Shown: positions 46,190 to 59,608 of the stretch, piece by piece | How positions within the stretch are numbered: position 1 is the first letter of the stretch | Layout of the letters: the number at the start of each line of letters is the position of its first letter | Assembly: GCA_919902495.1 (NCBI GenBank) | Contig: CAKKRC010000018.1 | Location: forward strand, 580-64,579 | Direction: 5' to 3' | Source of the DNA: Nitrospiria bacterium | GTDB taxonomy: Bacteria; Nitrospirota; UBA9217 | Length of the DNA: 64,000 bases | The notes under the pieces: model-generated | What the model saw: the letters and a program-made list of their open reading frames with translations, nothing else | The model's database searches: none | Told to the model about the DNA's origin: nothing | Made by a program: the position numbers and the translations under genes

Positions 46190-46244
46190 CAAGCCCCGTA
46201 CATGGCCGCGATCTTCGTACCGGTCGCGGCGATCTTCAGCAAGT

Positions 46245-46329
46245 GCCGAAGTGGTGGAATTGGTAGACACGCACGTTTGAGGGGCGTGTGGGGCAACCCA
46301 TGGGGGTTCGAGTCCCCCCTTCGGCACCA
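46245..46329 (+). tRNA. tRNA-Leu (anticodon GAG), long variable arm
   Basis: 85 nt. Acceptor GCCGAAG/CTTCGGC. Anticodon arm CACGT-TTGAGGG-GCGTG. T arm GGGGG-TTCGAGT-CCCCC. Encoded CCA followed by a T-run. Confidence 0.85.
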
Positions 46330-46470
46330 TTTTTTATCATACCGGAAAGCAGAACGAGAGGGGTGCTTCCCGCCCCGGCCTTCCACCGCGTCAGGCGAAC
46401 TCTGCCTGACTTCTTTTTTTTCGGCGACTCCGCGTCCTGCTCTCCCGGGAACGTTGCTCCTTCGGAACCC

Positions 46471-48079
46471 TATGCTGATACGAACGTTCATGCTCCTTCT
46501 TGCCGTTGTCCTGCTGCCGGTCGCGGCAGCCGCCCAGGAACCGCAGGCCAACGGCGGCAGCCTCGGCATCATCTCCGTCCCCCTTGCCAACGTCCGCGAA
46601 GAGCCTCTGCCCAAGTCTCCGATCGTCACCCAGGTCCTGCTTGCCGACGAGGTGCGGATACTGGAGAAACAGGAGTACCGGTACCGCATCGCCATCCCGG
46701 GCCAGGGGAACCGCGAGGGTTGGATCCAGCAGGAGGCGGTGCAGGTACCCCGCGACAAGGGGCGGTCATATCTCAAGACCGACCGGCAATGGATCGTTAT
46801 CACGGTCCCGAAGACCCCGGCCCTGATCCTCGACAAGCTCGGCAATCACAACGTTTCGCTCTATGCGGGCACGCGGCTTCCGATGCTCGAACGGGACGCA
46901 GACAGATACAAAGTGCAGTTTCCCGACCGGACCGCAGCCGTCATTGCCTCGGCAGACGCCATGCCGGTCAAACCCCGCAATCCCGTACTGGGCGGCGTGG
47001 CGCCCGCGGAGATCGCGAAGACGGCCCGCAAGTTCCAGGGCGCCCGCTACTTCAGCGGAGGGATCACGGCCCAGGGCATGGACACCCGCGGTCTCATCTA
47101 CACGGTCTACCGGATCCATGGTATCGACCTCGACACGGAGCGGGATGTCCTGAAGGCAAAGGCGGTGAAGGTCCCGAAGAAGGACCTGGCGCCCGGCGAC
47201 ATCCTCGTGTTCAACGGTGAAGGGCTCGGGCTCTACGTGAGCAACGGCCAGTTCCTGCACGCCGTCAGAAAGACCACCGTCCAGCTCGGCGGCATCCATG
47301 ACCGCCGGTTCGCCAACGCCTTTCTGTATGGGCTCCGCGTCGCGGGCCCGGAGCCCGACCAGAAGAAGCTCCCGGTGGAGATGAACGCGGACGAGATCAT
47401 GATCGCCCAGGGCCAGGCAGCGGAGCTGCCGCTGGGCAGGCGGATCGTGTATTGGGCCGGAAGGTTCATCGGAACGCCGTATGACACCGATCCCCTGGGA
47501 CAATACGTTCGCACGAACCGTATCGTTGCCGATGAGACAGCCGACTGCATGTATCTCACGTTCCGCGCCGCAGAGCTCGCGTTGTCCGCGACGCCGGGCC
47601 AGGCGATCGAGCAGGCGCTTTCCCTCCGTTTCACGACCCGGGGCAGGCTTGCCGACGGGCTGGTGCAGAACTACGGCGAACGCTTCGAATACGGCGAGGA
47701 CATGGTGTATAGCGGCAAGTGGGGCAGGGACATCACCGGCGACATGGGCGCAACAAAGACCATCTCGGGCTCACGGGGCCGCGATGAGGTTGTCATCCTT
47801 CCCAAGCAGGCGCTTCTGTCCAAGAAGCTCCAGAAGCAGCTTCAGGACGGTGACATCATCTACTGGGTCAAGGACCCGAAGAAACGCGTGGTGGAGGAGA
47901 TCGTTGCCCACCTGTCCTTTGTCCATATAAAAAATGGTAAGGCATACCTCATTCATGCCTCGGGCACCAAGGATAGCGTCACAAAGACCGGCGGCGGCAT
48001 GGTGAAGGAGGTCCCTTTCGCCGACTACGTACGCGATACGAAGTTCATCGGCGCGTTCGTGACCCGGTTCGAGCAGTAG
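46471..48079 (+). CDS. secreted SH3 + NlpC/P60-like protein (catalytic Cys/His apparently substituted) with an extra C-terminal domain
   Basis: Signal peptide. SH3-like region. NlpC/P60-like segment [20 protein letters not shown] in which the usual DCSG Cys is replaced by Thr. The ORF-track start at 46202 is a spurious extension across tRNA-Leu. Confidence 0.55.
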
Positions 48080-48251: not shown

Positions 48252-49784
48252 ATGCTTGCCAAGGTCATGAGCGCTGCCGTCCTGGGCATCGACGCCTATC
48301 CTGTCGAGGTGGAGGTCGACATCGCGAGCCGCGGCCTTCCGTTCTTCTCCACCGTGGGCCTGCCCGACGCGGCGGTGAAGGAGAGCAAGGAACGCGTCCG
48401 CGCTGCGCTCAAGAACACGGGGTTCGACTTTCCCCTGAAGCAGGTGGTCGTGAACCTCGCGCCCGCGGACATCAAGAAGGAAGGGTCGGCCTTCGACCTG
48501 CCCATTGCCGTCGGCATGCTGATCGCCGAGGGTGTCCTCACGCAGGAGATGGTGGCGGGCTACCTCATCGTGGGCGAGCTTGCGCTCGACGGCAGGGTGA
48601 AGCCGGTGCGGGGCGCTCTCTCCATGGCGGTGTTTGCAAAGAAGGCGGGCTGCCGCGGCATGATCATCCCTGGCGATAACGCGCCGGAGGCGGCGGTCGT
48701 TGAGCCGGTCCCTGTCTTCGGCGTCCGCACTTTGCCGCAGGTCGTGGAGTTCCTGACCGGCGCGGCGACCATGGAACCCGAACGCGTGAACGTCCGGAGC
48801 ACGTTCGAGACATACTCAGTATATCAGGAGGACTTCGCCGAGGTCCGCGGCCAGGAGCACGCCAAGCGCGCCATCGAGATCGCAGCTGCCGGCGGTCATA
48901 ATATCATTATGATCGGCCCTCCCGGCTCCGGCAAGACCATGCTTGCCCGGCGCCTGCCGTCCATCCTGCCGCAGATGAGCTTCGACGAATCCATCGAGAC
49001 CACCAAGATCCACAGCATCATGGGCCTTCTCCGGCAGGGCCAGCCGCTCATCGCGACGCGGCCCTACCGTTCGCCGCACCACACCATCTCCGACGCGGGG
49101 CTCATCGGCGGCGGCCAGGTCCCCAAGCCCGGCGAGGTGAGCCTGTCGCACAACGGCGTGCTGTTCCTGGACGAGCTTCCGGAGTTCAAGCGCAACGTGC
49201 TTGAAGCGCTCCGCCAGCCGCTCGAGGATGGCCACGTCACCATATCGCGCGCCATTACGTCGCTCACCTATCCGGCCTCGCTCATGCTCGTCGCCGCGAT
49301 GAATCCCTGCAAGTGCGGCTTCCATGGCGATCACCAGCACCCGTGCCAGTGCACACCCCACCAGGTACAGACCTACCGCTCCCGCGTGTCCGGCCCGCTC
49401 ATGGACCGCATCGATATCCACATCGAGGTCCCGGCCATCAAGTTCAAGGAGATCACCTCCGACGTTCCCGGAGAGCCGTCGGTCGCGATCCGCGACCGCG
49501 TTACCTTCGCCCGTTCGGTCCAGCAGGAGCGGTTCAAGACCGACGGCATTTACGCCAACGCCCACATGAAACCCCGCCACATCCGCAAGTATTGCAGGAT
49601 CGACGCCGGCTCCCAGCAGCTCATGGAGGCGGCCATGAACCGCCTCGGCCTGTCCGCCCGGGCCTACAACCGCGTCCTCAAGGTCGCCCGCACTATAGCT
49701 GATATCGAAGGCAGCGGCCCCATAGCGACGGAGCACATCTCCGAGGCCATACAATATCGGAGCCTGGACAGAAGGATAAGCTGA
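48252..49784 (+). CDS. comM: YifB/ComM-family Mg-chelatase-like AAA+ ATPase
   Basis: Lon-protease-like N-terminus. Walker A GPPGSGKT. C-terminal ChlI-like domain. 510 aa. Confidence 0.9.
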   Translation: MLAKVMSAAVLGIDAYPVEVEVDIASRGLPFFSTVGLPDAAVKESKERVRAALKNTGFDFPLKQVVVNLAPADIKKEGSAFDLPIAVGMLIAEGVLTQEMVAGYLIVGELALDGRVKPVRGALSMAVFAKKAGCRGMIIPGDNAPEAAVVEPVPVFGVRTLPQVVEFLTGAATMEPERVNVRSTFETYSVYQEDFAEVRGQEHAKRAIEIAAAGGHNIIMIGPPGSGKTMLARRLPSILPQMSFDESIETTKIHSIMGLLRQGQPLIATRPYRSPHHTISDAGLIGGGQVPKPGEVSLSHNGVLFLDELPEFKRNVLEALRQPLEDGHVTISRAITSLTYPASLMLVAAMNPCKCGFHGDHQHPCQCTPHQVQTYRSRVSGPLMDRIDIHIEVPAIKFKEITSDVPGEPSVAIRDRVTFARSVQQERFKTDGIYANAHMKPRHIRKYCRIDAGSQQLMEAAMNRLGLSARAYNRVLKVARTIADIEGSGPIATEHISEAIQYRSLDRRIS

Positions 49785-49889
49785 GCATATCCACCTCGCG
49801 TTTCTTATGTAATTCTCCGCGAAAACCCTACCTACCCGTTCGGGTAGTCGCATCCCCTTAAAATACCCCGACCAAGAACACATAAATAG

Positions 49890-49918
49890 TTGACACTCAC
49901 AATAAAGCTGTATATTAT
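49890..49918 (+). promoter_or_regulatory. consensus sigma70 promoter TTGACA-17-TATTAT upstream of the Rhs gene
   Basis: -35 at 49890-49895, -10 at 49913-49918, in an AT-rich tract. About 130-nt leader to ATG 50055. Confidence 0.55.
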
Positions 49919-50054
49919 CGATTGCACATCACGTAACTACTCACCGCGAAAATTCTTTTCAGCATTAATCAATATCACAGGCATCATCTTAAGATCCATA
50001 TTGCCAGCTAATGACGGCGAATTGCAATCACGCATTGTTACCCGGGGGGGAGAC

Positions 50055-53000
50055 ATGAAGAAGCAAGGCTATGCGTCCGCAGTACTATTGTTCATTCTGT
50101 GCATATCTCAAATGTATGCAATACCTGCCATGGCGAAAGACGGCTACCGCACTGTTGTCATCGATCAGGCCGGCGATCGCGTATTTGCAGTGAACAACGA
50201 CACAGAAGGCATCGACGTCATTGATGCAAAGACAGGGGCGCTTGTTTCCTCTATTCTCTCACGTGCCGATATCGAGGTGTTGGCTCTCGATGAACAGCGC
50301 AAATTGCTCGCAGCGGGAGGAGAGCACGGCGTCAGCATCATTTCAACAGAAACACTTGCTGTCCTGTCGACCATCCGGGTCTCCGGCGAGCCCACTGCCA
50401 TCGCCATTGATCCGACCCTCGGCTATCTTCTGATCGCCGCTGAACATGGAAAACTTTCGATCGTTGATCTCATGGCATTGCGAGTTATTACGGAGATCGA
50501 ACTGCTGGACAAGCCGGTGTCCATCGCTGTTGATCCGACGCTTCATCGCGCAATTGTAGCTCACCACACTTGGGGCAAAGGTTCGGATAGGAAAAAGAGT
50601 GAAGAGGAAAAGATACGCGACAATATATCGATCATTGATCTCTCTACCCTGTCCGTAGTGGCTACTCTTCTTGCCGGAAAAGAACCTGTCGATGTCGACG
50701 TTAATCCCATCACGCACGAAGCCGCAGTCGCGAACGAAAAGAGCGATGATGTCACGCTCATTGATCTTGGGACCGTGAGCGTTAAGGGCACGATCCCCGT
50801 TGATAAGCACCCTTCAGCGCTTTACTACAACAGCTGTCTGAACACGCTCGCCGTAGTCGGCGGAGAAGACAGGTCATGGCTCAGGGTCATCGATCCGGCG
50901 ACACAGGACGTCCAGGTTGTCTCTCGATATCATGATAAGCTTTATGACATAGGGATCCATAACTCGTTGAACAAGGCTGTCCTGGCCGGCAAGTCGAGAA
51001 TCCAATTCGTTGCTCTCCCGAATCCCATACCTCATCTTGACGCTATCTTCCCTAATAAGGCGCTCCGGGGCGGCGGACCATTCGAGATAACGTTAAGCGG
51101 AACAGGGCTTTTGGCTTCAACCGAGGTTTACCTGAACGGCATAAAGGCCGAATCTTCGTTCAAGGCCTGCGGCACGATCACTATTTCGATTTCTGCCACC
51201 CTTCTTGATAATGCCGGAACCATAGAGATCAAAGCGACAAACCCCGCTCCCCAAGGCGGAACGTCGAATATCCTGCTCCTCGCTGTTGAAAATCCTGTTC
51301 CCTCGATCCTGGCGCTCCAACCGACCCAGGCCGCCGCCGGTTCCCTGGATTTAACGCTCACTATCATCGGGAGCGGATTTTTCCCGAATACGCAATTCTT
51401 CATAAACAGCACACCTCGTGCGTTCACGTATCTCAGCGCAACAACGATCCAGACGCAACTGACCGCCGTTGAGCTCGAGACGGGACGCTATATCACCATT
51501 TCCGCGGTCAACCCCCAGCCAGGCGGCGGATCGTCTCTACCGTCCACCTTTACCGTGTTGAATCCCGTTCCAGCGATCTCGTCACTCTCTCCCGCTGAAT
51601 TGACCGCCGGCAGCTCAGACACGACAGTTACGATCACCGGCGACAATTTTGTTATGGGTTCGTCCGTGCTGTTGAACGGACAGCCGATCGCTACCAAATA
51701 CGTCGGAAAAACCAGCATCGAAACCACCCTCGCCGCTGCCCAGCTGGCAAACCCGGGCAGCTTTGCTGTCGAAGTTAGCAATCCCGTGCCCGGAGGCGGA
51801 TCGTCTCCGGCGGTGTCCCTCCTGGTTAAACCGGCAGGCAACAAACCTGACCCGTTGCCCGACGGCAGTTTCGGAAAACAGTACGAGGACCTTGTTCCGA
51901 CGAACGCAACGATCAAAGCCTATGATCCGAAGCGTTTCTCCATCGTGACCGGCCTGATCACCGACAGGACCGGGAATCCCGTTTCCGGTATCCAGGTCTC
52001 GATCCACGGTCACGCCGAATATGGCTCCGCCACGACCGACAATAACGGCAGATATTCGCTTCCCCTCGACGGCGGAACAACATTCACGATGGTCTATCAG
52101 ATGACGGGCCTCATTACGAGCCACCGGCAGGTCTATGTGCCCTGGAACGATATTGCCATCAGCGAGACAGTCACCCTGATCGCCGCGGATTCGAAAGCAA
52201 CCACGGTCACCTTCGACGGTAATCCGACTACGGTGGTGACGCACCGGAGCACACCGGTCACTGATTCCTTCGGCAGCCGGTCCATGACCATGGTATTTAC
52301 CGGCGACAACCACGCGTATGTGACCGACGAGAACGGTTTAGAAACGATCGCAACAACGATTACCACCCGCGCCACGGAGTTCGACACGCCCGAGAGCATG
52401 CCAGCGGTGCTCCCGCCGACCTCGGCTTACACTTACTGCGCCGAACTGTCAGCCGACGGTGCTAAGCATGTTCGCTTCGAGAAACCCGTCGTCACTTATG
52501 TGGAAAACTTCCTGGGCTTTCCCGTCGGCTCGATCGTTCCAGTGGGCTACTACGATCGGGCGAAGGGAACGTGGGTCGCCTCCGACAACGGTGTAGTCGT
52601 GAGGCTGCTTGATACGAACGGCGATGGTATCGTGGATGCCCTGGACAGTACGGGGGACAGCCTGCCGGACGACCTGAACAATGATGGATCGTTCATCGAT
52701 GAGGTAAAGGGCCTCTCCGATGCTGGTATATTCAATCCGGGCGGTACGTACTGGCGCGTTAGCGTCAATCATTTCACCCCGTACGACCACAACTGGCCCT
52801 ATGGACCGCCTGAAGATGCAATTGATCCAAATCCTGAGAGAGATCCGGTCCAAGACAAACAACAACCATGCGATGCCGTTGATTATACCAGCTCCTATTG
52901 CGAGAGAAAGAGCAGAGTGTTTCATGAAGATGTGTCCCTAGCTGGAACAGACATGACGCTGCATTATGCAAGTAACAGAGTACAAGGCTATAAAACGGTT

Positions 53001-56000
53001 ATTTCGATACCCGCAAGCGGACCAACGCTTCCAGGAAGCCTCAAAAGTATTATCGTTCGCATGGAGCTAAGCGGGCGCGTTTTCCAGAGAGTTCTTTCAC
53101 CACGACCGAATCAATCGGTTGAGTTCATTTGGGATGGCCTTGATCATCTTGGGAGACGAGTAATCGGTCCTAAACACGCAAATATAAGCATCGGTTATGG
53201 CTATACATTGGTCTACTATTCTGCGCGGAGTGACGTTCTGTCCTCATGGGCAAGAGTGGGCGATTGGTCACTCGCTATCCCGGGTCGCCAGGACATTATC
53301 GTATGGAAACACAGCAAAATATATGTCCATCGCGATGAGTATCGTTCGGTCGTCAAGGGCTGGACATTGTCTAAGCATCATCATATGACGCCATGGGCCC
53401 CGAATTTGTTGATCAAGGGCGATGGCACAACGATTGACAACCGAGTGCGAACTATTTCGACTATCGCGGGGAATTTCCAACAAGGATACAGCGGCGATGG
53501 TGTTCCTGCCACTCAAGCGAGCTTATATCAGCCTGCGGGTGTAATCGCGGATAAGGCGGGCAACATTTTATTTGCTGATCATTTTAATGATCGGATCCGC
53601 ATGGTGGATACATCCGGAATCATATCGACTGTCGCCGGAAATGGGCGGACGGGATTCAGCGGAGACGGCGGACTTGCAGTAGAGGCGAGCCTGATGTATC
53701 CGACCGGCGTTGCACTGGATAATTACGGCAACCTTTATATTGCAGATGGCGGAAACTCACGAATACGAAAAGTCGACTCTGCGGGAATTATCACAACGAT
53801 AGCCGGCATTGGCCAATATGGATATGGCGGCGACGGAGGCCCAGCTGTGCAGGCGGCGCTCTTTTATCCGAGCGGCGTAGCCGTCGACCGGGAGGGTAAT
53901 GTCTATATTGCCGACTTGGGAAACAGCAGAGTAAGAATAATGGATGCCAGCGGAATAATCCGCACGTTCGCCGGCAATGGAGAGATGTTTTCCTTCAGCG
54001 GCGACGGCGGCCGCGCTGAGGAGGCTGGATTAAGCTATCCCAGCGGTGTAGCGGTTGACGGCAGCGGGAACGTATATATTGCCGATCGATATAACGGACG
54101 GATCAGGAAAGTTGATGTCCGGGGGATAATCACAACCATTGCAGGATCGGGCGACTGGTGGTCCTATAATGGAAATAGCGGAGATGGCGGACCGGCAGTT
54201 GAGGCCTTCATGGTTCCCGAGGCGGTAGCGTTGGATAGCGTGGGGAATATTTATGTTGCTGATCAGGGTCTAAATACAATAAGAAAGATCAATACGAGTG
54301 GAATTATCACAACGATTGCTGGTAATGGAGAATATGGGTATGGTGGGGATGGCGGTCTATCGACGAAAGCTCAGCTCTATTATCCTACAGGAGTGGCCGT
54401 TGATCCGGCGTCAAATGTGTATATCGCGGATTCGTATAGTAATAAAATCCGCAAGATTTCGGAGCTTAACGTCTTCGCGTTACATGTGGTCGAAGGCGAT
54501 ATACCGTTCGCCGATGAAAACGGTTTGGGATACATCATGGGCAGCACCGGTCTGCACAAGAAAACAATCGATCTCGCATCGGGAATTACCCTGCTCGATT
54601 TCGGTTATAATACCAGGGGCGAATTAATATCAATAACAGATCGCTTCGGGAGTCAAACATCGATCCAATGGAATGCAGCAGGAACGATATCGTCCATTAC
54701 GTCGCCTGATGGTATTGTTACCAGCCTGACCGTAGATGGCAACACTCATCTGACAAACATCTCTTATCAGGACGGTTCCTCATATGCTTTCGGCTATACC
54801 GCCGATGGTTTAATGACCGATGAGTATGATCGCAGAAACAACCACTTCATCCACCAATACGCTCCAGCGAGCGGCAGAATCACCTCGATTATCGACCCGG
54901 AGTCCGGCCGCTGGGATTACGAGCACTACACCGATGCAACAGGCACGGTTTTTTCATCAATGCGAACGGCAGAGGGCAATATAATATCCTATCGCGATAA
55001 AGAGGACCTCGCAGGCGCGTACACTTCAGCGCAGACGGACGCTCGGGGTGAAACCACTACGACAACCCTGATGTTGGATGGATTTAGCGCGACGCAAACT
55101 GACGCCTGCGGCGTGAAGAAAGAGACGACCTTTGATATAGATTCGGCTTTTTTCAGCCGATATGAGACCGCATCAGTGGTAACTACGCCAGCAGGGCTTT
55201 CGCGGTCAAGGAACATCAGCAAGTCGTATGCTGATACCAATGCTGACAATATTCCCGATATCAGCATCAAAACGGTTTCCTTGAATGATAAAATATGGCT
55301 GGATGAAATCAATGTCATAGCAGGGACTCGTCGAACGACAACACCACAGGGAAGAAACAGAACGACGATTCATAATCCTTCTAATCTTTTAATTACATCA
55401 ATTGAAACAACGGGTCTCTATTCGGCGATGTTCGGTTACGATTTCCGCGGTCGGCTGACGTCAGCTACCACTGGCAGCAGAACAAGTATTATTGCCTACG
55501 ATGCTTTTGGGCACTACGATTACATCATAACGCCCGATAACCGGAAGTTCGATTATTCTTATGACAGGATGGGGAATCTGCGCTCCCTGCAGCAGCCAGA
55601 CGGTTCCGTGATCAGGTATGATTACGACTTGAGCGGCAATATGACCGTGCTCACGAACGCCAAGAGCGTCACGAATACCTTCAATTACACCGCCAACGAC
55701 CAACGGAAGACCTGGACCACGCCGTTGTCAGGCAGTTATACCTACACGTTCGACAAAGAGCGGAAGCTCAAGACGGTTACCTATCCCTCGGGAAGGGTGC
55801 TCAGCAACACCTATACGAATGGTCTCTTGGCTGGTATGACGACTCCGGAAGGCTCGACTACGTACAGCTATGGATGTTCGGGTCAGCTTTCCGGCGCCGT
55901 GCGCGGTTCTGAGTCGATAGCGTTTACCTATGACGGCTCGCTCATCAAAACCGACTCGCGAGTCGGGACCGTGGGCCAGGCGATCAGCTATACATACAAC

Positions 56001-57431
56001 AACGATTTCAATTTGTCGTCGATTACCTATGCCGGAGTTACGCAGAGCCTCGGCTATGACAACGACGGCCTTTTAATCTCAGCTGCTCCTTACGCCATCA
56101 CCCGGAACGCCCAGAACGGCCTGCCCGAGATGGTTGGAGACGGCAATCTGACACTTTCGAGAACCTTTAGTGGCTACGGCGAGCTTGACCAGAGCGTTTA
56201 TGCCGTGAGCGGAACCCCGCTCTACAGTTGGACCCTTTCACGCGACAACGCAGGCCGGATTACTCAGAAAATAGATGTCATGCCGCTGGGAGGTGTTGTC
56301 TGGGATTACGCTTACGATACCTTGGGCCGGCTGAAGGAAGTGAAGCAGAGCGGCAGTATCGTCGAAAGCTATGAGTACGACGCAAACGGCAACAGGACCT
56401 TCGAAACGAACACTTTCCGGGGAACGAGCAACAGGGCCTATGCCTACTCGCTCGAAGACCATGTCCTGACCGCCGGGCAGGACACCTACCAGTTTGATGC
56501 AGACGGCTTCCTGACGAGAAGAACAACCTCAGCAGGAACGGCTACCTTCACCTATTCATCACGAGGTGAGCTTCTAAGCGCTGCATTGCCTGACGGCAGG
56601 GTGCTCACCTACGACCACGACCCCATGGGCAGGAGAATCGCGAAGCGGGTGAATGGCACGATCATCGAGAAATATCTCTGGCAGGGCGCGACCCGTCTCC
56701 TGGCGGTATACGACAACAGCAACAACCTCGTCATGCGGTTTACCTATGCCGACGGACGGATGCCGGTGTCCATGACAAAGGGTGGTATCACGTACTATCT
56801 CTTCTACGACCAGATCGGCTCGCTCAGGGCGGTTGTGGACGGCAGTGGACAGATCGTAAAGGAAATGGTGTATGATTCCTTCGGGTATATGTATAATGAA
56901 AGCAATCCGGCGTTTACGGTGCCGTTTGGATTTGCTGGGGGGCTCTATGACCGTGATACAGGACTCGTTCGTTTCGGAGCCAGGGATTACGATCTAGCCA
57001 TCGGCAGGTGGACTGCCAAGGACCCCATAGATTTTGCGGGCGGAGACACAAATCTATTTGAGTATGTCTTTTCAAGTCCGATTAATTATACCGATAGTCT
57101 TGGACTAGTGGCTAGATGGCTGGTTCCCGATTCCATAATTAACAACTCACAACAAGTCGTAAATAGGGTAACAAACAATGCTTTTAGCAAAGAGGAATTA
57201 GCGAAATTAACCAATTTGGTCATAAAAAATATTGGGTATCTTGATGCTATACAATTTCAAAAAGTATGGTTTGATACCCAAGGAAATGTTCCGCTCACAA
57301 ATAAGCAAAAAAATATTCTTGACAACTTGTTTAACGAGCTTCTGAATGATGCTGATAATCAGGATTTAATTATGAAAGCCTACGAAGAATATCTTAAAGC
57401 GTTTGAGGAGAAAAAATGCTATCTAAAATGA
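50055..57431 (+). CDS. teneurin-like Rhs/YD-repeat polymorphic toxin (beta-propeller repeats, Ig-like repeats, NHL propeller, YD shell, Rhs core, variable C-terminal tip)
   Basis: GGGGGGAG RBS. Signal peptide MKKQGYASAVLLFILCISQMYAIPAMA. Three ~95-aa tandem repeats each ending NPxPGGGSS. Seven NHL repeats (GDGGxA..YPxGVAVDxxGNVYIAD..RIRK). Many YD motifs. Rhs core end DPIDFAGGDTNLFEYVFSSPINYTDSLGL at 57093-57107, followed by a 108-aa low-GC tip. Confidence 0.85.
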   Translation: MKKQGYASAVLLFILCISQMYAIPAMAKDGYRTVVIDQAGDRVFAVNNDTEGIDVIDAKTGALVSSILSRADIEVLALDEQRKLLAAGGEHGVSIISTETLAVLSTIRVSGEPTAIAIDPTLGYLLIAAEHGKLSIVDLMALRVITEIELLDKPVSIAVDPTLHRAIVAHHTWGKGSDRKKSEEEKIRDNISIIDLSTLSVVATLLAGKEPVDVDVNPITHEAAVANEKSDDVTLIDLGTVSVKGTIPVDKHPSALYYNSCLNTLAVVGGEDRSWLRVIDPATQDVQVVSRYHDKLYDIGIHNSLNKAVLAGKSRIQFVALPNPIPHLDAIFPNKALRGGGPFEITLSGTGLLASTEVYLNGIKAESSFKACGTITISISATLLDNAGTIEIKATNPAPQGGTSNILLLAVENPVPSILALQPTQAAAGSLDLTLTIIGSGFFPNTQFFINSTPRAFTYLSATTIQTQLTAVELETGRYITISAVNPQPGGGSSLPSTFTVLNPVPAISSLSPAELTAGSSDTTVTITGDNFVMGSSVLLNGQPIATKYVGKTSIETTLAAAQLANPGSFAVEVSNPVPGGGSSPAVSLLVKPAGNKPDPLPDGSFGKQYEDLVPTNATIKAYDPKRFSIVTGLITDRTGNPVSGIQVSIHGHAEYGSATTDNNGRYSLPLDGGTTFTMVYQMTGLITSHRQVYVPWNDIAISETVTLIAADSKATTVTFDGNPTTVVTHRSTPVTDSFGSRSMTMVFTGDNHAYVTDENGLETIATTITTRATEFDTPESMPAVLPPTSAYTYCAELSADGAKHVRFEKPVVTYVENFLGFPVGSIVPVGYYDRAKGTWVASDNGVVVRLLDTNGDGIVDALDSTGDSLPDDLNNDGSFIDEVKGLSDAGIFNPGGTYWRVSVNHFTPYDHNWPYGPPEDAIDPNPERDPVQDKQQPCDAVDYTSSYCERKSRVFHEDVSLAGTDMTLHYASNRVQGYKTVISIPASGPTLPGSLKSIIVRMELSGRVFQRVLSPRPNQSVEFIWDGLDHLGRRVIGPKHANISIGYGYTLVYYSARSDVLSSWARVGDWSLAIPGRQDIIVWKHSKIYVHRDEYRSVVKGWTLSKHHHMTPWAPNLLIKGDGTTIDNRVRTISTIAGNFQQGYSGDGVPATQASLYQPAGVIADKAGNILFADHFNDRIRMVDTSGIISTVAGNGRTGFSGDGGLAVEASLMYPTGVALDNYGNLYIADGGNSRIRKVDSAGIITTIAGIGQYGYGGDGGPAVQAALFYPSGVAVDREGNVYIADLGNSRVRIMDASGIIRTFAGNGEMFSFSGDGGRAEEAGLSYPSGVAVDGSGNVYIADRYNGRIRKVDVRGIITTIAGSGDWWSYNGNSGDGGPAVEAFMVPEAVALDSVGNIYVADQGLNTIRKINTSGIITTIAGNGEYGYGGDGGLSTKAQLYYPTGVAVDPASNVYIADSYSNKIRKISELNVFALHVVEGDIPFADENGLGYIMGSTGLHKKTIDLASGITLLDFGYNTRGELISITDRFGSQTSIQWNAAGTISSITSPDGIVTSLTVDGNTHLTNISYQDGSSYAFGYTADGLMTDEYDRRNNHFIHQYAPASGRITSIIDPESGRWDYEHYTDATGTVFSSMRTAEGNIISYRDKEDLAGAYTSAQTDARGETTTTTLMLDGFSATQTDACGVKKETTFDIDSAFFSRYETASVVTTPAGLSRSRNISKSYADTNADNIPDISIKTVSLNDKIWLDEINVIAGTRRTTTPQGRNRTTIHNPSNLLITSIETTGLYSAMFGYDFRGRLTSATTGSRTSIIAYDAFGHYDYIITPDNRKFDYSYDRMGNLRSLQQPDGSVIRYDYDLSGNMTVLTNAKSVTNTFNYTANDQRKTWTTPLSGSYTYTFDKERKLKTVTYPSGRVLSNTYTNGLLAGMTTPEGSTTYSYGCSGQLSGAVRGSESIAFTYDGSLIKTDSRVGTVGQAISYTYNNDFNLSSITYAGVTQSLGYDNDGLLISAAPYAITRNAQNGLPEMVGDGNLTLSRTFSGYGELDQSVYAVSGTPLYSWTLSRDNAGRITQKIDVMPLGGVVWDYAYDTLGRLKEVKQSGSIVESYEYDANGNRTFETNTFRGTSNRAYAYSLEDHVLTAGQDTYQFDADGFLTRRTTSAGTATFTYSSRGELLSAALPDGRVLTYDHDPMGRRIAKRVNGTIIEKYLWQGATRLLAVYDNSNNLVMRFTYADGRMPVSMTKGGITYYLFYDQIGSLRAVVDGSGQIVKEMVYDSFGYMYNESNPAFTVPFGFAGGLYDRDTGLVRFGARDYDLAIGRWTAKDPIDFAGGDTNLFEYVFSSPINYTDSLGLVARWLVPDSIINNSQQVVNRVTNNAFSKEELAKLTNLVIKNIGYLDAIQFQKVWFDTQGNVPLTNKQKNILDNLFNELLNDADNQDLIMKAYEEYLKAFEEKKCYLK
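57108..57431 (+). other. Rhs C-terminal variable (toxin) tip, ~35% GC, no recognisable motif
   Basis: Begins directly after DSLGL. By eye, composition changes abruptly from ~60% to ~35% GC. I recognise no known catalytic motif. Confidence 0.6.
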
Positions 57432-57796
57432 AGAATACAGCAAAAGGATGGCTAGTAACTTTATTGCTAGGCATTTCTTGTGGGACTATATTCTTTTATT
57501 TACTCAAAACACTCCCGTCGAAGTATGCAGATATGTTGTTTTATTTATTTGGCCTCCAATATTTAGTAGCGGCATTAGTTGTCGACAATAGTTCGATTTA
57601 TTACTTATTATTTTCCATATTGCATTTCATTATAATATTTCGATTGTGTTTCTGGTTAGTACGCAAAGAGCTTTCCGTGCGACAGTGGGCATTGGCTATA
57701 TTTGGTTATTTAATTTTTAGCATTTCTATCTTTATTGGATCGGCGTACATTTTTTTCCATTATGTTATGCGAATAGGTGAAACCATTTCGCAATAA
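57416..57796 (+). CDS. 4-TM small membrane protein, candidate cognate immunity protein
   Basis: ATG overlaps the toxin stop codon region. AT-rich like the tip. Four hydrophobic helices. Confidence 0.55.
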   Translation: MLSKMKNTAKGWLVTLLLGISCGTIFFYLLKTLPSKYADMLFYLFGLQYLVAALVVDNSSIYYLLFSILHFIIIFRLCFWLVRKELSVRQWALAIFGYLIFSISIFIGSAYIFFHYVMRIGETISQ

Positions 57797-57842
57797 TTAT
57801 CAAGTATATTTTCTATTCAGAACAGCAAAATCGGATTGATAG

Positions 57843-57874
57843 GTGCGTATGGGGTCCGGTGCGTATGGGGTCCG
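57843..57874. repeat. tandem direct repeat 2 x GTGCGTATGGGGTCCG (16 nt)
   Basis: Read directly: identical units at 57843-57858 and 57859-57874, GC-rich in an AT-rich context. Confidence 0.7.
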
Positions 57875-57896
57875 ACTTGAATCTGTAGTTATTGCT

Positions 57897-58400
57897 TCAC
57901 ACCCGATCATTTCGAGTAAGGAATGACTGTATCCTCTCGATGTTCTTCCTGCTCGGCCGCATCCTTCCGCTCATCCAGTCTGTCAGTTGCTCCGGATCCC
58001 GACCCATCACAGCTCCCAGCCGCTCATAGGACAGACCGTTTACGCGTTTATAGTACTTGAGCCTGCCAATGGTATCCTCCGGGCAGGGGAAGGGGACATA
58101 CCCCAAGAATTGGATCACCGCGGGCATATACTTTAGCTCCGGCTCGGTTCCACGCTCCCAGTTATAAACCGAAGCCTCTGAAACGCCTACCTGTTTTGCA
58201 ACCTGCCGTTGGAATAATCCCAAATCAATTCGACGCTTGCGGATATGGTCTCCGATGGTTCGGGGATTGCCAGTATAACCCCGGGGTGCTATAATCGGCC
58301 GTGGTAATGAAAACCTATATATCGGCCACTCGAAAAAGGTGCCTGAACCCCTGCAAGTGCGGCTTCCATGGCGATCACCAGCACCCGTGCCAGTGCACAC
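57897..58400 (-). CDS. XRE-family HTH regulator; N-terminus runs without a canonical start into the duplicated comM fragment
   Basis: HTH: IGDHIRKRRIDLGLFQRQVAKQVGVSEASVYNWERG. No ATG/GTG/TTG lies within 30 codons upstream of the HTH. The only in-frame Met (58400) is inside the antisense of the comM duplicate, so the 5' end may be disrupted. Confidence 0.5.
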   Translation of the reverse strand: MCTGTGAGDRHGSRTCRGSGTFFEWPIYRFSLPRPIIAPRGYTGNPRTIGDHIRKRRIDLGLFQRQVAKQVGVSEASVYNWERGTEPELKYMPAVIQFLGYVPFPCPEDTIGRLKYYKRVNGLSYERLGAVMGRDPEQLTDWMSGRMRPSRKNIERIQSFLTRNDRV

Positions 58401-58828
58401 CCCACCAGGTACAGACCTACCGCTCCCGCGTGTCCGGCCCGCTCATGGACCGCATCGATATCCACATCGAGGTCCCGGCCATCAAGTTCAAGGAGATCAC
58501 CTCCGACGTTCCCGGAGAGCCGTCGGTCGCGATCCGCGACCGCGTTACCTTCGCCCGTTCGGTCCAGCAGGAGCGGTTCAAGACCGACGGCATTTACGCC
58601 AACGCCCACATGAAACCCCGCCACATCCGCAAGTATTGCAGGATCGACGCCGGCTCCCAGCAGCTCATGGAGGCGGCCATGAACCGCCTCGGCCTGTCCG
58701 CCCGGGCCTACAACCGCGTCCTCAAGGTCGCCCGCACTATAGCTGATATCGAAGGCAGCGGCCCCATAGCGACGGAGCACATCTCCGAGGCAATTCAGTA
58801 CCGGAGCCTCGACAGAAGGATAAGCTGA
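58345..58828 (+). pseudogene. comM: orphan duplicate of the comM 3' end (last 161 codons)
   Basis: Matches 49301-49784 base for base. Exceptions: one synonymous change at the first codon and five synonymous changes clustered in the last 45 nt. The encoded C-terminus is identical. A TATAAT at 58290-58295 and an in-frame ATG at 58307 lie just upstream. Confidence 0.8.
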
Positions 58829-58880: not shown

Positions 58881-59213
58881 ATGAAAACAAGTGGACTGTC
58901 GGAGCATGAAAAGGCCGCCCTTGCGAAGCTGAAGAAGACGCTTGAAGAGCGGTTTAATCTTATTGATTTCCGCGTGTTCGGGTCAAAAGCGCGCGGCGAG
59001 GCTGTTCCCGAATCCGATATCGATGTGATGATTGAGATCGAAGAGTACAACCCGCTGACGGAGTCAGAAATAGACGAATTGGTGTTTAAGATCAACCTAG
59101 AATATGACTGCTTTATATCGGTAGTCATTTTCGGCAGGCGCGAACTTGAAGAGGGGCCCCTGGGAGAATCTCCCCTGTACCGCGTGATCGAAAGAGAGGG
59201 GATCAAGGTTTGA
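58881..59213 (+). CDS. minimal nucleotidyltransferase (MNT) antitoxin
   Basis: FGSKARGEAVPESDIDVMIE, a Pol-beta-type NTase GS..D.D motif. 110 aa. Confidence 0.7.
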   Translation: MKTSGLSEHEKAALAKLKKTLEERFNLIDFRVFGSKARGEAVPESDIDVMIEIEEYNPLTESEIDELVFKINLEYDCFISVVIFGRRELEEGPLGESPLYRVIEREGIKV

Positions 59214-59608
59214 CTGTCGATGAAAAAAGACACGAGCTTGCGCAATATCGCCTCAAGCAGGCTGCGGAAAGCCTGGAAGAAGCTGAGTTCCTCATGTCCG
59301 GAAAAATGAGTCCCCGCTCCATCATCAACAGAGCGTACTATGCCATGTTCTACGCCGTGTTGGCCCTTCTTGTCAATGAGCCGTATGCTTCCTCAAAGCA
59401 TACCGGTGTTCTTGCCTACTTCAACAAAAACTTCATTAAAAGCGGCCTTCTCCCTGAAGCGCTCGGGCGATCCCTTAACAAGGCTTTTGAGTTAAGACAA
59501 CGCGGCGACTACAGGGAATATATCGAGATGACGCACGAGCAGGTCGCGCCGTTTATCGGCGAGGCCCGGAGCTTTATAGCTGCGGTACGGGCTCACCTCG
59601 ATAAATAG
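59210..59608 (+). CDS. HEPN-domain toxin
   Basis: HEPN R-x4-6-H-type motif region (RQRGDYREY). TTG start overlaps the MNT stop. 132 aa. Confidence 0.65.
   Translation: MTVDEKRHELAQYRLKQAAESLEEAEFLMSGKMSPRSIINRAYYAMFYAVLALLVNEPYASSKHTGVLAYFNKNFIKSGLLPEALGRSLNKAFELRQRGDYREYIEMTHEQVAPFIGEARSFIAAVRAHLDK

Follow-up and report, generated by a model that had tools for sequence, protein, structure and literature searches.

What event placed a second 3' end of comM 9 kb downstream of the first, with an Rhs toxin gene and its neighbours in between? The sequence concerned is a 64,000-nucleotide stretch of a Nitrospiria bacterium (GenBank assembly GCA_919902495.1, contig CAKKRC010000018.1, positions 580 to 64,579), hereafter the window, whose own numbering is used throughout. 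A preliminary description had put forward two origins: the integration into the 3' part of comM of an element bearing a substitute 3' end, or a product of recombination or gene conversion. We consider it quite probable that the island is a decayed or cis-mobilizable member of an apparently undescribed family of comM-specific elements, similar to the cis-mobilizable elements (CIMEs), and that its two comM copies were homogenized later. The features on which the argument turns are the following, where L-numbers denote loci of the survey described below.

48252-49784, + strand: comM, intact, encoding a YifB/Mg-chelatase-like AAA+ helicase of DNA uptake, 510 aa (Pfam ChlI, Mg_chelatase, Mg_chelatase_C)
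49300-49784, + strand: repeat copy A, the last 160 comM codons plus the stop; probable replacement 3' end travelling with the island
49302-49309, + strand: attL crossover core AATCCCTG, codons Asn351-Pro-Cys, assigned from L146/L147, L087/L088/L089 and the junction consensus
58344-58828, + strand: repeat copy B, the displaced and probably native comM 3' end (Pfam Mg_chelatase and Mg_chelatase_C)
58346-58353, + strand: attR crossover core AACCCCTG, one base off attL (49304 T vs 58348 C)

Alignment and base-by-base comparison confirmed the near-perfect duplication and extended it by one base, from the 484 bp first described to 485 bp, as a direct repeat of 49300-49784 at 58344-58828 (offset 9044). 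Its left end is the TG before the Asn351 codon, its right end is exactly the comM stop codon (49782-49784), and the sequences outside it are unrelated between the copies on either side. The 8,559 bp separating the copies have a GC content of 51%, versus 59-60% in the flanks. The copies are 98.8% identical, and precise alignment reproduced the six differences as originally listed, all of them synonymous (P about 1.5e-4 for six of six). One lies in the first shared codon, Asn351, which is AAT in copy A (T at 49304) and AAC in copy B (C at 58348); the others, at 49748, 49751, 49754, 49757 and 49766, are GCC/GCA, ATA/ATT, CAA/CAG, TAT/TAC and CTG/CTC. These five are packed into 19 nt, 19-37 nt from the end of the stop codon, a clustering with P about 3e-5 under uniform placement. 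The stop and tail variant of copy A continues into GCATATCCACC; the stop of copy B is followed by TGTCAATTGCCTTGAAAAAAG, its tail variant continuing into AGCTGCTGTCAATTG.

The source is a contig of 257 kb from a short-read metagenome of Hainich groundwater (well H41), and the 443-bp identical stretch within the repeat is longer than the reads, as would suit an assembler that duplicated a single comM 3' end or chained two strain variants. Such an artefact is very unlikely, because two separate assemblies, ERZ1292633 and ERZ1292628, one of them from a replicate sample, contain the island at 100% identity, including all copy-specific single-nucleotide polymorphisms (SNPs), and because two Logan contigs from other runs start at 58762, 30 nt ahead of the first tail SNP of copy B, as is expected of a k=31 assembler meeting a true repeat. 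Dozens of other contigs and two closed genomes (CP001089 and CP042466) also show the same architecture. The duplication is thus real.

A recurrent junction at Asn351 of ComM

The right-hand end of the island is occupied by a regulatory gene, which served as the marker for the survey.

57897-58400, - strand: XRE regulator with two tandem Cro/cI-type helix-turn-helix (HTH) domains (Pfam HTH_3, HTH_31); conserved coding part from 58340

The first sign of recurrence was L048, from a distant metagenome-assembled genome (MAG) labelled 'Deltaproteobacteria', in which a second copy of the comM C-terminal part starts from the same motif with an XRE gene beside it. Homologues of the window XRE numbered 162 at E <= 1e-5, and 199 at E <= 1e-30 against cluster representatives; context look-ups and a metagenome scan together gave about 90 loci. 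In 56 of the 77 XRE copies with at least 300 bp upstream, a divergent comM fragment adjoins the gene, and in 54 of these 56 the fragment starts at residues 351-353 (351 in 48, 352-353 in six). Among the named hosts are Nitrospirota MAGs, Trichlorobacter lovleyi SZ, Geobacter sulfurreducens, Geobacter sp. FeAm09 and Geomonas. XRE is the only gene conserved throughout the island family. In most relatives CAT or CAC at the Asn351 position, read on the opposite strand, supplies its ATG or GTG start, which implies that the regulator starts at the edge of the element and that its upstream signals must lie in antisense comM. The XRE edge of the window island ends in ...GAAAAAGGTGCCTG; here the junction offers the gene no canonical start, and the next one in frame is GTG at 58400, within copy B.

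The sequence shared by these junctions, AAYCCCTG, encodes Asn351-Pro-Cys of the conserved ComM motif MNPCxCG. Its role was delimited by loci that share an element and differ beyond it. L146 and L147, a near-identical strain pair, are identical over 12,843 bp and then part at A|ATCCCTG: past this point L146 runs into comM codons 350 and below, and L147 into a second XRE gene, that is, an extra unit. In two Trichlorobacter genomes (L087 and L088) 6.2 kb of XRE and cargo are 100% identical, and beyond the junction the comM fragments are about 75% identical and the downstream genes unrelated; the switch is located within CACCCCTGCCC, at most 11 nt from the junction. A third context, L089, narrows it to ACCCCTG, at most 7 nt. 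All three switches fall at the edge of the element, which argues for strand exchange in a core of 7-8 bp, since homologous crossovers would scatter over 480 bp. The isolated first-codon difference of the window (49304) falls within this core.

The proposal that an element entered the 3' part of comM with a replacement 3' end was therefore supported from three sides: by the same Asn351 junction in more than 50 unrelated loci, by a strain-level polymorphism of exactly one unit at this junction, and by an identical element joined to different comM ends. The suggestion that the cluster of synonymous tail differences marks a boundary did not hold for integration, as the site of crossover is the repeat's left end, inside AAYCCCTG. 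The comparison with an empty site that had been recommended was answered in part, through the relatives L146 and L147, which differ at the core; for the organism of the window no empty site was found, and a ComM scan of one genome per species gave nothing closer than 66% identity.

Tandem units with their own, different comM remnants occur in L132, L147 and L175, and tandem units were also seen in L088 and L089; the window itself contains none. Ten complete islands, from intact comM to remnant, span 1.9-8.6 kb, and no tyrosine recombinase was detectable in them. Their cargo includes a second Rhs-type toxin (SpvB/TcdB), a phospholipase A2 (PLA2)-like protein with small membrane proteins, Fic, HipA, AbiEi/AbiEii, an HD-domain protein and MsrAB.

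Several loci depart from the common arrangement. In L105 (1-330) and L160 (3003-4482) the 5' part of comM, up to Pro352/Cys353, is followed by XRE in the same orientation, the polarity being opposite to that of the other junctions; this arrangement would truncate comM and suggests occasional insertion, or inversion, in the reverse sense. Units without a comM replacement end were found in L113 (11650-11800), L117 (7560-7700), L120 (2280-2420) and L125 (370-510), where the core CCCCTG is followed by conserved non-comM sequence with a stop after about five codons (..PGFAR* or ..PEFAR*) and a small hairpin; insertion of such a unit would truncate comM. In the Trichlorobacter-like L107 (9026-11457) the 5' half of comM is also cut, starting at residue 216 beside a rolling-circle Rep_trans gene, which points to a second, unrelated mobile element in the same comM.

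Probable native and island-borne copies

Copy A is most likely the island-borne end and copy B the native, displaced one, so that the comM gene of the window, whose exact protein is present on six contigs, would most likely be a hybrid of native codons 1-350 and island-borne codons 351-510. At the strain pair this polarity is plain: the displaced copy of L147 matches the 3' end within the comM gene of L146 at 100% identity and is thus the native one at that locus. For the window the indication is indirect and comes from two flank matches. L175 contains a window-like unit (comM end, homologous toxin, different immunity gene, orphan shell tip and XRE end) that was displaced by a further unit; its homology to the window begins exactly at 49300 and continues into the toxin gene, and the sequence past the stop of copy A resembles that past the copy in this unit. 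The sequence past the stop of copy B, in turn, matches the comM 3' flank of the relative L099. A comparison of the tail codons with relatives gave no clear native variant.

The remnants appear to have been working gene ends. Between loci their ratio of nonsynonymous to synonymous divergence (dN/dS) is 0.03-0.18, with dS at least 0.5 (high or saturated), and this low ratio, together with the presence of remnants beside identical elements, implies that the divergence arose while they still belonged to functional genes. A separate paralogue clade had been considered, as all 120 best matches of the T. lovleyi remnant were short; it was rejected because the remnants interleave with full-length ComM C-termini, the best full-length match averaging 85% and reaching 100%. 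Nor did we retain as proof of replacement that ComM of the window and of L086 share 88% identity before codon 350 and 70-77% after it. Island-free ComM pairs, examined for calibration, usually have a C-terminal part that is 5-10 points less conserved, and the drop therefore supports replacement weakly. In public annotations of Geobacterales many genes of 160-190 aa are named 'magnesium chelatase family' or 'ATP-binding protein'; most of them are probably displaced comM ends, which would explain many genes of 160-180 aa carrying these names.

Across the complete islands, copies A and B share 67-100% amino-acid identity. Mismatch maps revealed two patterns: in the window, L172, L048 and L146 the interiors are identical over 300-470 nt, with differences at one or both ends only, and in L086 and L099 the copies differ throughout. 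Gene conversion after insertion would be the simplest account of the homogenized interiors, and the 19-nt tail patch of the window is best read as original divergence that homogenization spared. Gene conversion, one of the options raised in the preliminary description, would accordingly have a part in this history, as a secondary process and not as the origin of the duplication.

Mechanism of insertion and related systems

According to the explanation we favour, a tyrosine-type recombinase would have exchanged strands within the 7-8 bp core AAYCCCTG. The island (49300-58343) would carry its own comM codons 351-510 directly after the core, and its insertion would have rebuilt comM and moved copy B, as the native 3' end, 9 kb downstream to a place next to the start of the terminal XRE gene. 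Either the island never possessed an integrase and transfer genes or these would have been lost, leaving a CIME-like derivative; the large members of the family would be conjugative elements, and in a few loci an integrase lies beside the same core. The rebuilt comM could receive further insertions, by which units would stack, and a related integrase could in principle move them in cis or in trans. Gene conversion between the 485-bp copies would then have erased their divergence, sparing the core base and the 19-nt patch near the stop codon.

The source of such an enzyme is suggested by a few relatives. In the closed genome of Geobacter sp. FeAm09 (CP042466.1) the same XRE and junction head an operon of OmpA, DsbC, TraL, TraE, TraK, TrbI, TraV and TraC, so at least one family member is a conjugative element. 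Tyrosine integrases were identified by a hidden Markov model (HMM) search over all loci in L133 and L143 only (442 and 446 aa, Pfam Phage_int_M and Phage_integrase). Their genes, which adjoin a cI/S24-type repressor, converge with a comM-like stub of about 30 codons and stop some 90 nt from the XRE|core junction, a position which implies that an integrase-bearing element uses the same core. The FeAm09 Tra proteins gave no matches in any of the loci, and the L133 integrase was not found in viral contigs. The earlier statement that the window holds no integrase stands: Pfam annotation (precomputed for 15.6-64 kb, and run for 0-15.6 kb) gave neither a tyrosine nor a serine recombinase in the 64 kb, and the tyrosine-recombinase HMM matched none of the window's open reading frames (ORFs). 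Both att cores are kept in the window, with a one-base difference and no int or tra genes. The XRE protein itself was ruled out as a recombinase on the strength of its predicted structure, since the confident AlphaFold2 model (pLDDT 92.8) consists of two Cro/cI-type HTH domains only, the closest structures being the P22 c2 and 434 repressors. A likeness of the island's right-end sequence to a XerC half-site, seen by eye, was discarded because it had no XerD arm to support it.

Several observations weigh against this explanation. Among about 90 loci there is one conjugative relative and there are two with integrases, both of which belong to the neighbouring unit; neither the island nor the window holds a recombinase. 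The small islands look like tidy cassettes in which no obvious tra or int debris was seen, and simple decay predicts otherwise. XRE was not found in the plasmid, phage and IMG/VR collections. For the organism of the window there was neither a circular form nor an empty site, exact-protein look-ups giving only the occupied arrangement. Over its final 18 nt the repeat is identical, which places the divergent patch inside it and not at an edge that conversion simply missed. Finally, a one-base difference separates attL from attR in the presumed overlap, and the window XRE has no canonical start, for which reasons this copy of the island may be immobile.

A rival account is a dedicated gene-capture platform. 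On that account the units are not decayed integrative and conjugative elements (ICEs) but true cassettes of 2-9 kb, capped by XRE; a recombinase encoded elsewhere in the genome would stack them at comM, much as IntI does with integron cassettes. The modules, made up of toxins, toxin-antitoxin pairs and defence genes and each with a fresh comM end, would be captured by this trans-acting enzyme. Recombinase and transfer genes are missing from all ten complete small islands although the cargo (Fic, HipA, AbiE, toxins) is intact, the arrays of two or three units run in one orientation, the sole conserved gene has its start codon at the crossover site, and its absence from the plasmids and phages of the collections searched points the same way. 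If this were so, the junction would hold both the XRE start and an outward promoter directed against it, and expression could report the integration state. We nevertheless regard such a platform as unlikely. No conserved recombinase gene flanks the arrays, and none was found flanking comM or the last remnant in the window, L086 and L172. Because one member is clearly conjugative and an ordinary phage-type integrase lies at the same core in two loci, the known CIME route explains the data without a new system.

Entry with no site-specific enzyme at all, by RecA-dependent recombination after DNA uptake, appears even less probable. The constant left boundary would then be inherited within the element lineage, and the entry itself might be a Campbell-type single crossover of a circle bearing a comM 3' fragment, or illegitimate joining at the NPCxCG microhomology. 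Transformation between close relatives would need no integrase, the divergence of XRE roughly tracks that of ComM, and the copies are 98.8% identical, with perfectly identical interiors in four loci. Against this, a 100%-identical element sits on remnants about 75% identical, with the switch 7-11 nt from the junction in three hosts, and longer identical blocks further inside were not used as switch points. The element also occurs in hosts whose comM genes are too divergent for RecA crossovers, and an integrase-bearing element uses the same core.

Site-specific insertion of a CIME-like element, to which we return, belongs to a known kind, that of site-specific elements which rebuild their target gene; what appears new is the family itself. 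In the icd gene of Escherichia coli the lambdoid phage 21 and e14 carry a substitute 3' end and leave a direct repeat of about 165 bp with mainly synonymous differences. These are integrase-bearing, prophage-type elements, whereas the window island has no integrase and its 485-bp repeat is almost fully homogenized. SXT/R391 elements in prfC repair their target with their own sequence, have the cI-like SetR opposite the integrase end and serve the host gene from an outward promoter. SXT substitutes the 5' end of prfC and, as far as is known, always has int and xis; the window island would replace the 3' end and has neither gene. Integron arrays likewise consist of recombinase-free units in one orientation at a fixed site, but the comM units have no IntI, attI or attC, measure 2-9 kb and contain their own promoters and a copy of the target gene's end.

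comM is commonly cited for being broken by mobile elements, possibly because this prevents transformation from curing them. A family that rebuilds the gene at the highly conserved Asn351 codon offers a natural contrast for testing this conflict hypothesis. That comM is an island hot spot in other bacteria through other mechanisms, as the preliminary description held, agrees with the literature: AbaR/Tn6022-type Tn7-like transposons and others insert there (PMC12378983, PMC11014353), and the reported insertions disrupt the gene (PMC12378983). They are made by a transposase, interrupt comM and leave short target duplications; in the family described here comM is rebuilt, no transposase was seen and the duplication is 485 bp. 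No transposase domains were found in the window by Pfam, and its comM is uninterrupted.

The closest likeness is to CIMEs, islands that keep attL and attR, have lost their int and transfer genes and join incoming elements in tandem by accretion (PMC5704250). ICESt1, ICESt3 and the related CIMEs at the fda 3' end of Streptococcus thermophilus also insert into a 3' end and keep the gene intact, have derivatives free of int and transfer genes that retain both att sites, and stack in tandem at one site (PMC5704250). The comM family differs in its target (codon 351 of comM), its Nitrospirota and Geobacterales hosts, its far longer restoring segment of 160 codons, and its conserved terminal two-HTH XRE gene with a start codon at the junction; moreover, the descent of the small comM units from conjugative elements is inferred. 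We found no description of a comM Asn351 element family in the searchable literature, and its combination of hallmarks, namely crossover at the NPC codons, a 160-codon restoring segment, an XRE cap, recombinase-free stacked units and Nitrospirota/Geobacterales hosts, appears new. A divergent XRE gene with a comM fragment makes this hot spot recognizable in poorly studied groundwater and sediment bacteria of these groups, where competition toxins, toxin-antitoxin pairs and candidate defence genes gather, and the cultured strains Trichlorobacter lovleyi SZ and Geobacter sp. FeAm09 would allow the recombination to be tested.

Island cargo and neighbouring genes

Between the two comM copies of the window lie the following further features.

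49890-49918, + strand: sigma-70-like promoter TTGACA-17-TATTAT ahead of the toxin gene, predicted by consensus scan (11/12 matches)
50055-57431, + strand: teneurin-like YD/Rhs toxin of about 2,460 aa (Pfam TEN_NHL, TEN_YD-shell, RHS_repeat, TIG, TTR_TEN1-4)
57025-57431, + strand: variable C-terminal toxin tip of about 135 aa after the YD shell, of low GC and without a Pfam family
57416-57796, + strand: candidate immunity gene, 126 aa, a hydrophobic multi-pass membrane protein overlapping the toxin stop, without a Pfam match
57842-57874, no strand: tandem 16-bp repeat GGTGCGTATGGGGTCC, 2.1 copies, between the candidate immunity ORF and the 3' end of XRE (Tandem Repeats Finder, TRF)
58267-58295, + strand: predicted outward near-consensus promoter TTGCCA-17-TG-TATAAT in the XRE 5' coding region (11/12 plus extended -10)

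The toxin comprises, in order, a Sec-type signal peptide, beta-propeller, TIG, TTR, FN-plug, NHL and YD-shell domains. Its possible starts are the ATG at 50055, which we prefer, 50130 (gene caller) and 49890 (longest ORF); from 50055 the N-terminus reads MKKQGYASAVLLFILCISQMYAIPAMA, and the signal peptide depends on this choice. Compared with the scheme of Rhs polymorphic toxins, the shell domains are clear and the tip is without a family match: the YD-shell match stops at residue 2378, and homology to the L175 toxin stops at 57067. Tip and candidate immunity ORF together have 34% GC. The ORF at 57416-57796 was missed by the metagenome gene caller, and its candidacy as an immunity gene comes from its position, composition and hydrophobicity. 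This cargo resembles that of Rhs and contact-dependent inhibition (CDI) loci with displaced 'orphan' tips (PMC3967940), in that a YD-shell toxin ends in a low-GC tip, probably exchanged, and is followed by a candidate immunity gene; the relative L175 keeps an orphan shell tip. Displacement in Rhs/CDI loci acts on the toxin gene, whereas the duplication described here concerns a neighbouring housekeeping gene and has another cause.

The 16-bp repeat region just past the XRE stop may be a terminator or a binding site; positions 57857-57912, which overlap its 3' half, are 89% identical in L175, although the adjoining immunity genes differ. The predicted outward promoter points into copy B and the host genes beyond, and L086 has TTGCTC-17-TACAAT at the same place. 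It could restore transcription of downstream host genes or oppose that of XRE. A few bases past it an in-frame ATG opens an ORF of 173 aa (58307-58828) comprising the ComM zinc-ribbon, lid and C-terminal domain; its expression is doubtful, because the start is not conserved in L086, where a stop codon intervenes.

Other cargo of the family is varied. L088, which is T. lovleyi SZ CP001089.1:164711-175196, contains XRE, then Fe-ADH, AraC, a second XRE unit and a sigma-70 factor, followed by three HSP20 genes, DnaJ, MerR and a DegP-like protease, a set reminiscent of transmissible stress-tolerance loci; in L087 an insertion sequence (IS) interrupts the same heat-stress genes. The Nitrospirota island in L171 (5181-7681) carries Nmad3, a thymidylate kinase and a radical-SAM/SPASM protein, and looks like an anti-phage nucleotide-modifying system. 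In the smallest units, L146 (10001-12175) and L156 (2189-4354), XRE is followed on the same strand by Fic or HipA, as in a HipB-HipA pair, and the cap XRE may double as an antitoxin in some units.

A search for known RNA families and tRNA genes at the junctions gave none. Downstream of copy B lie an MNT/HEPN pair, RNase J and housekeeping genes. The MNT and HEPN genes (58881-59608), a typical toxin-antitoxin module directly after copy B with a GC content of 51%, below that of the flanks, may represent another accessory insertion beyond the island. A tRNA-Leu(gag) gene with no island attached (46245-46329), some 2 kb upstream of comM, lies within the listed ORF 46202-48079; the true start of the NlpC/P60 gene is near 46490, and not at the start of this ORF.

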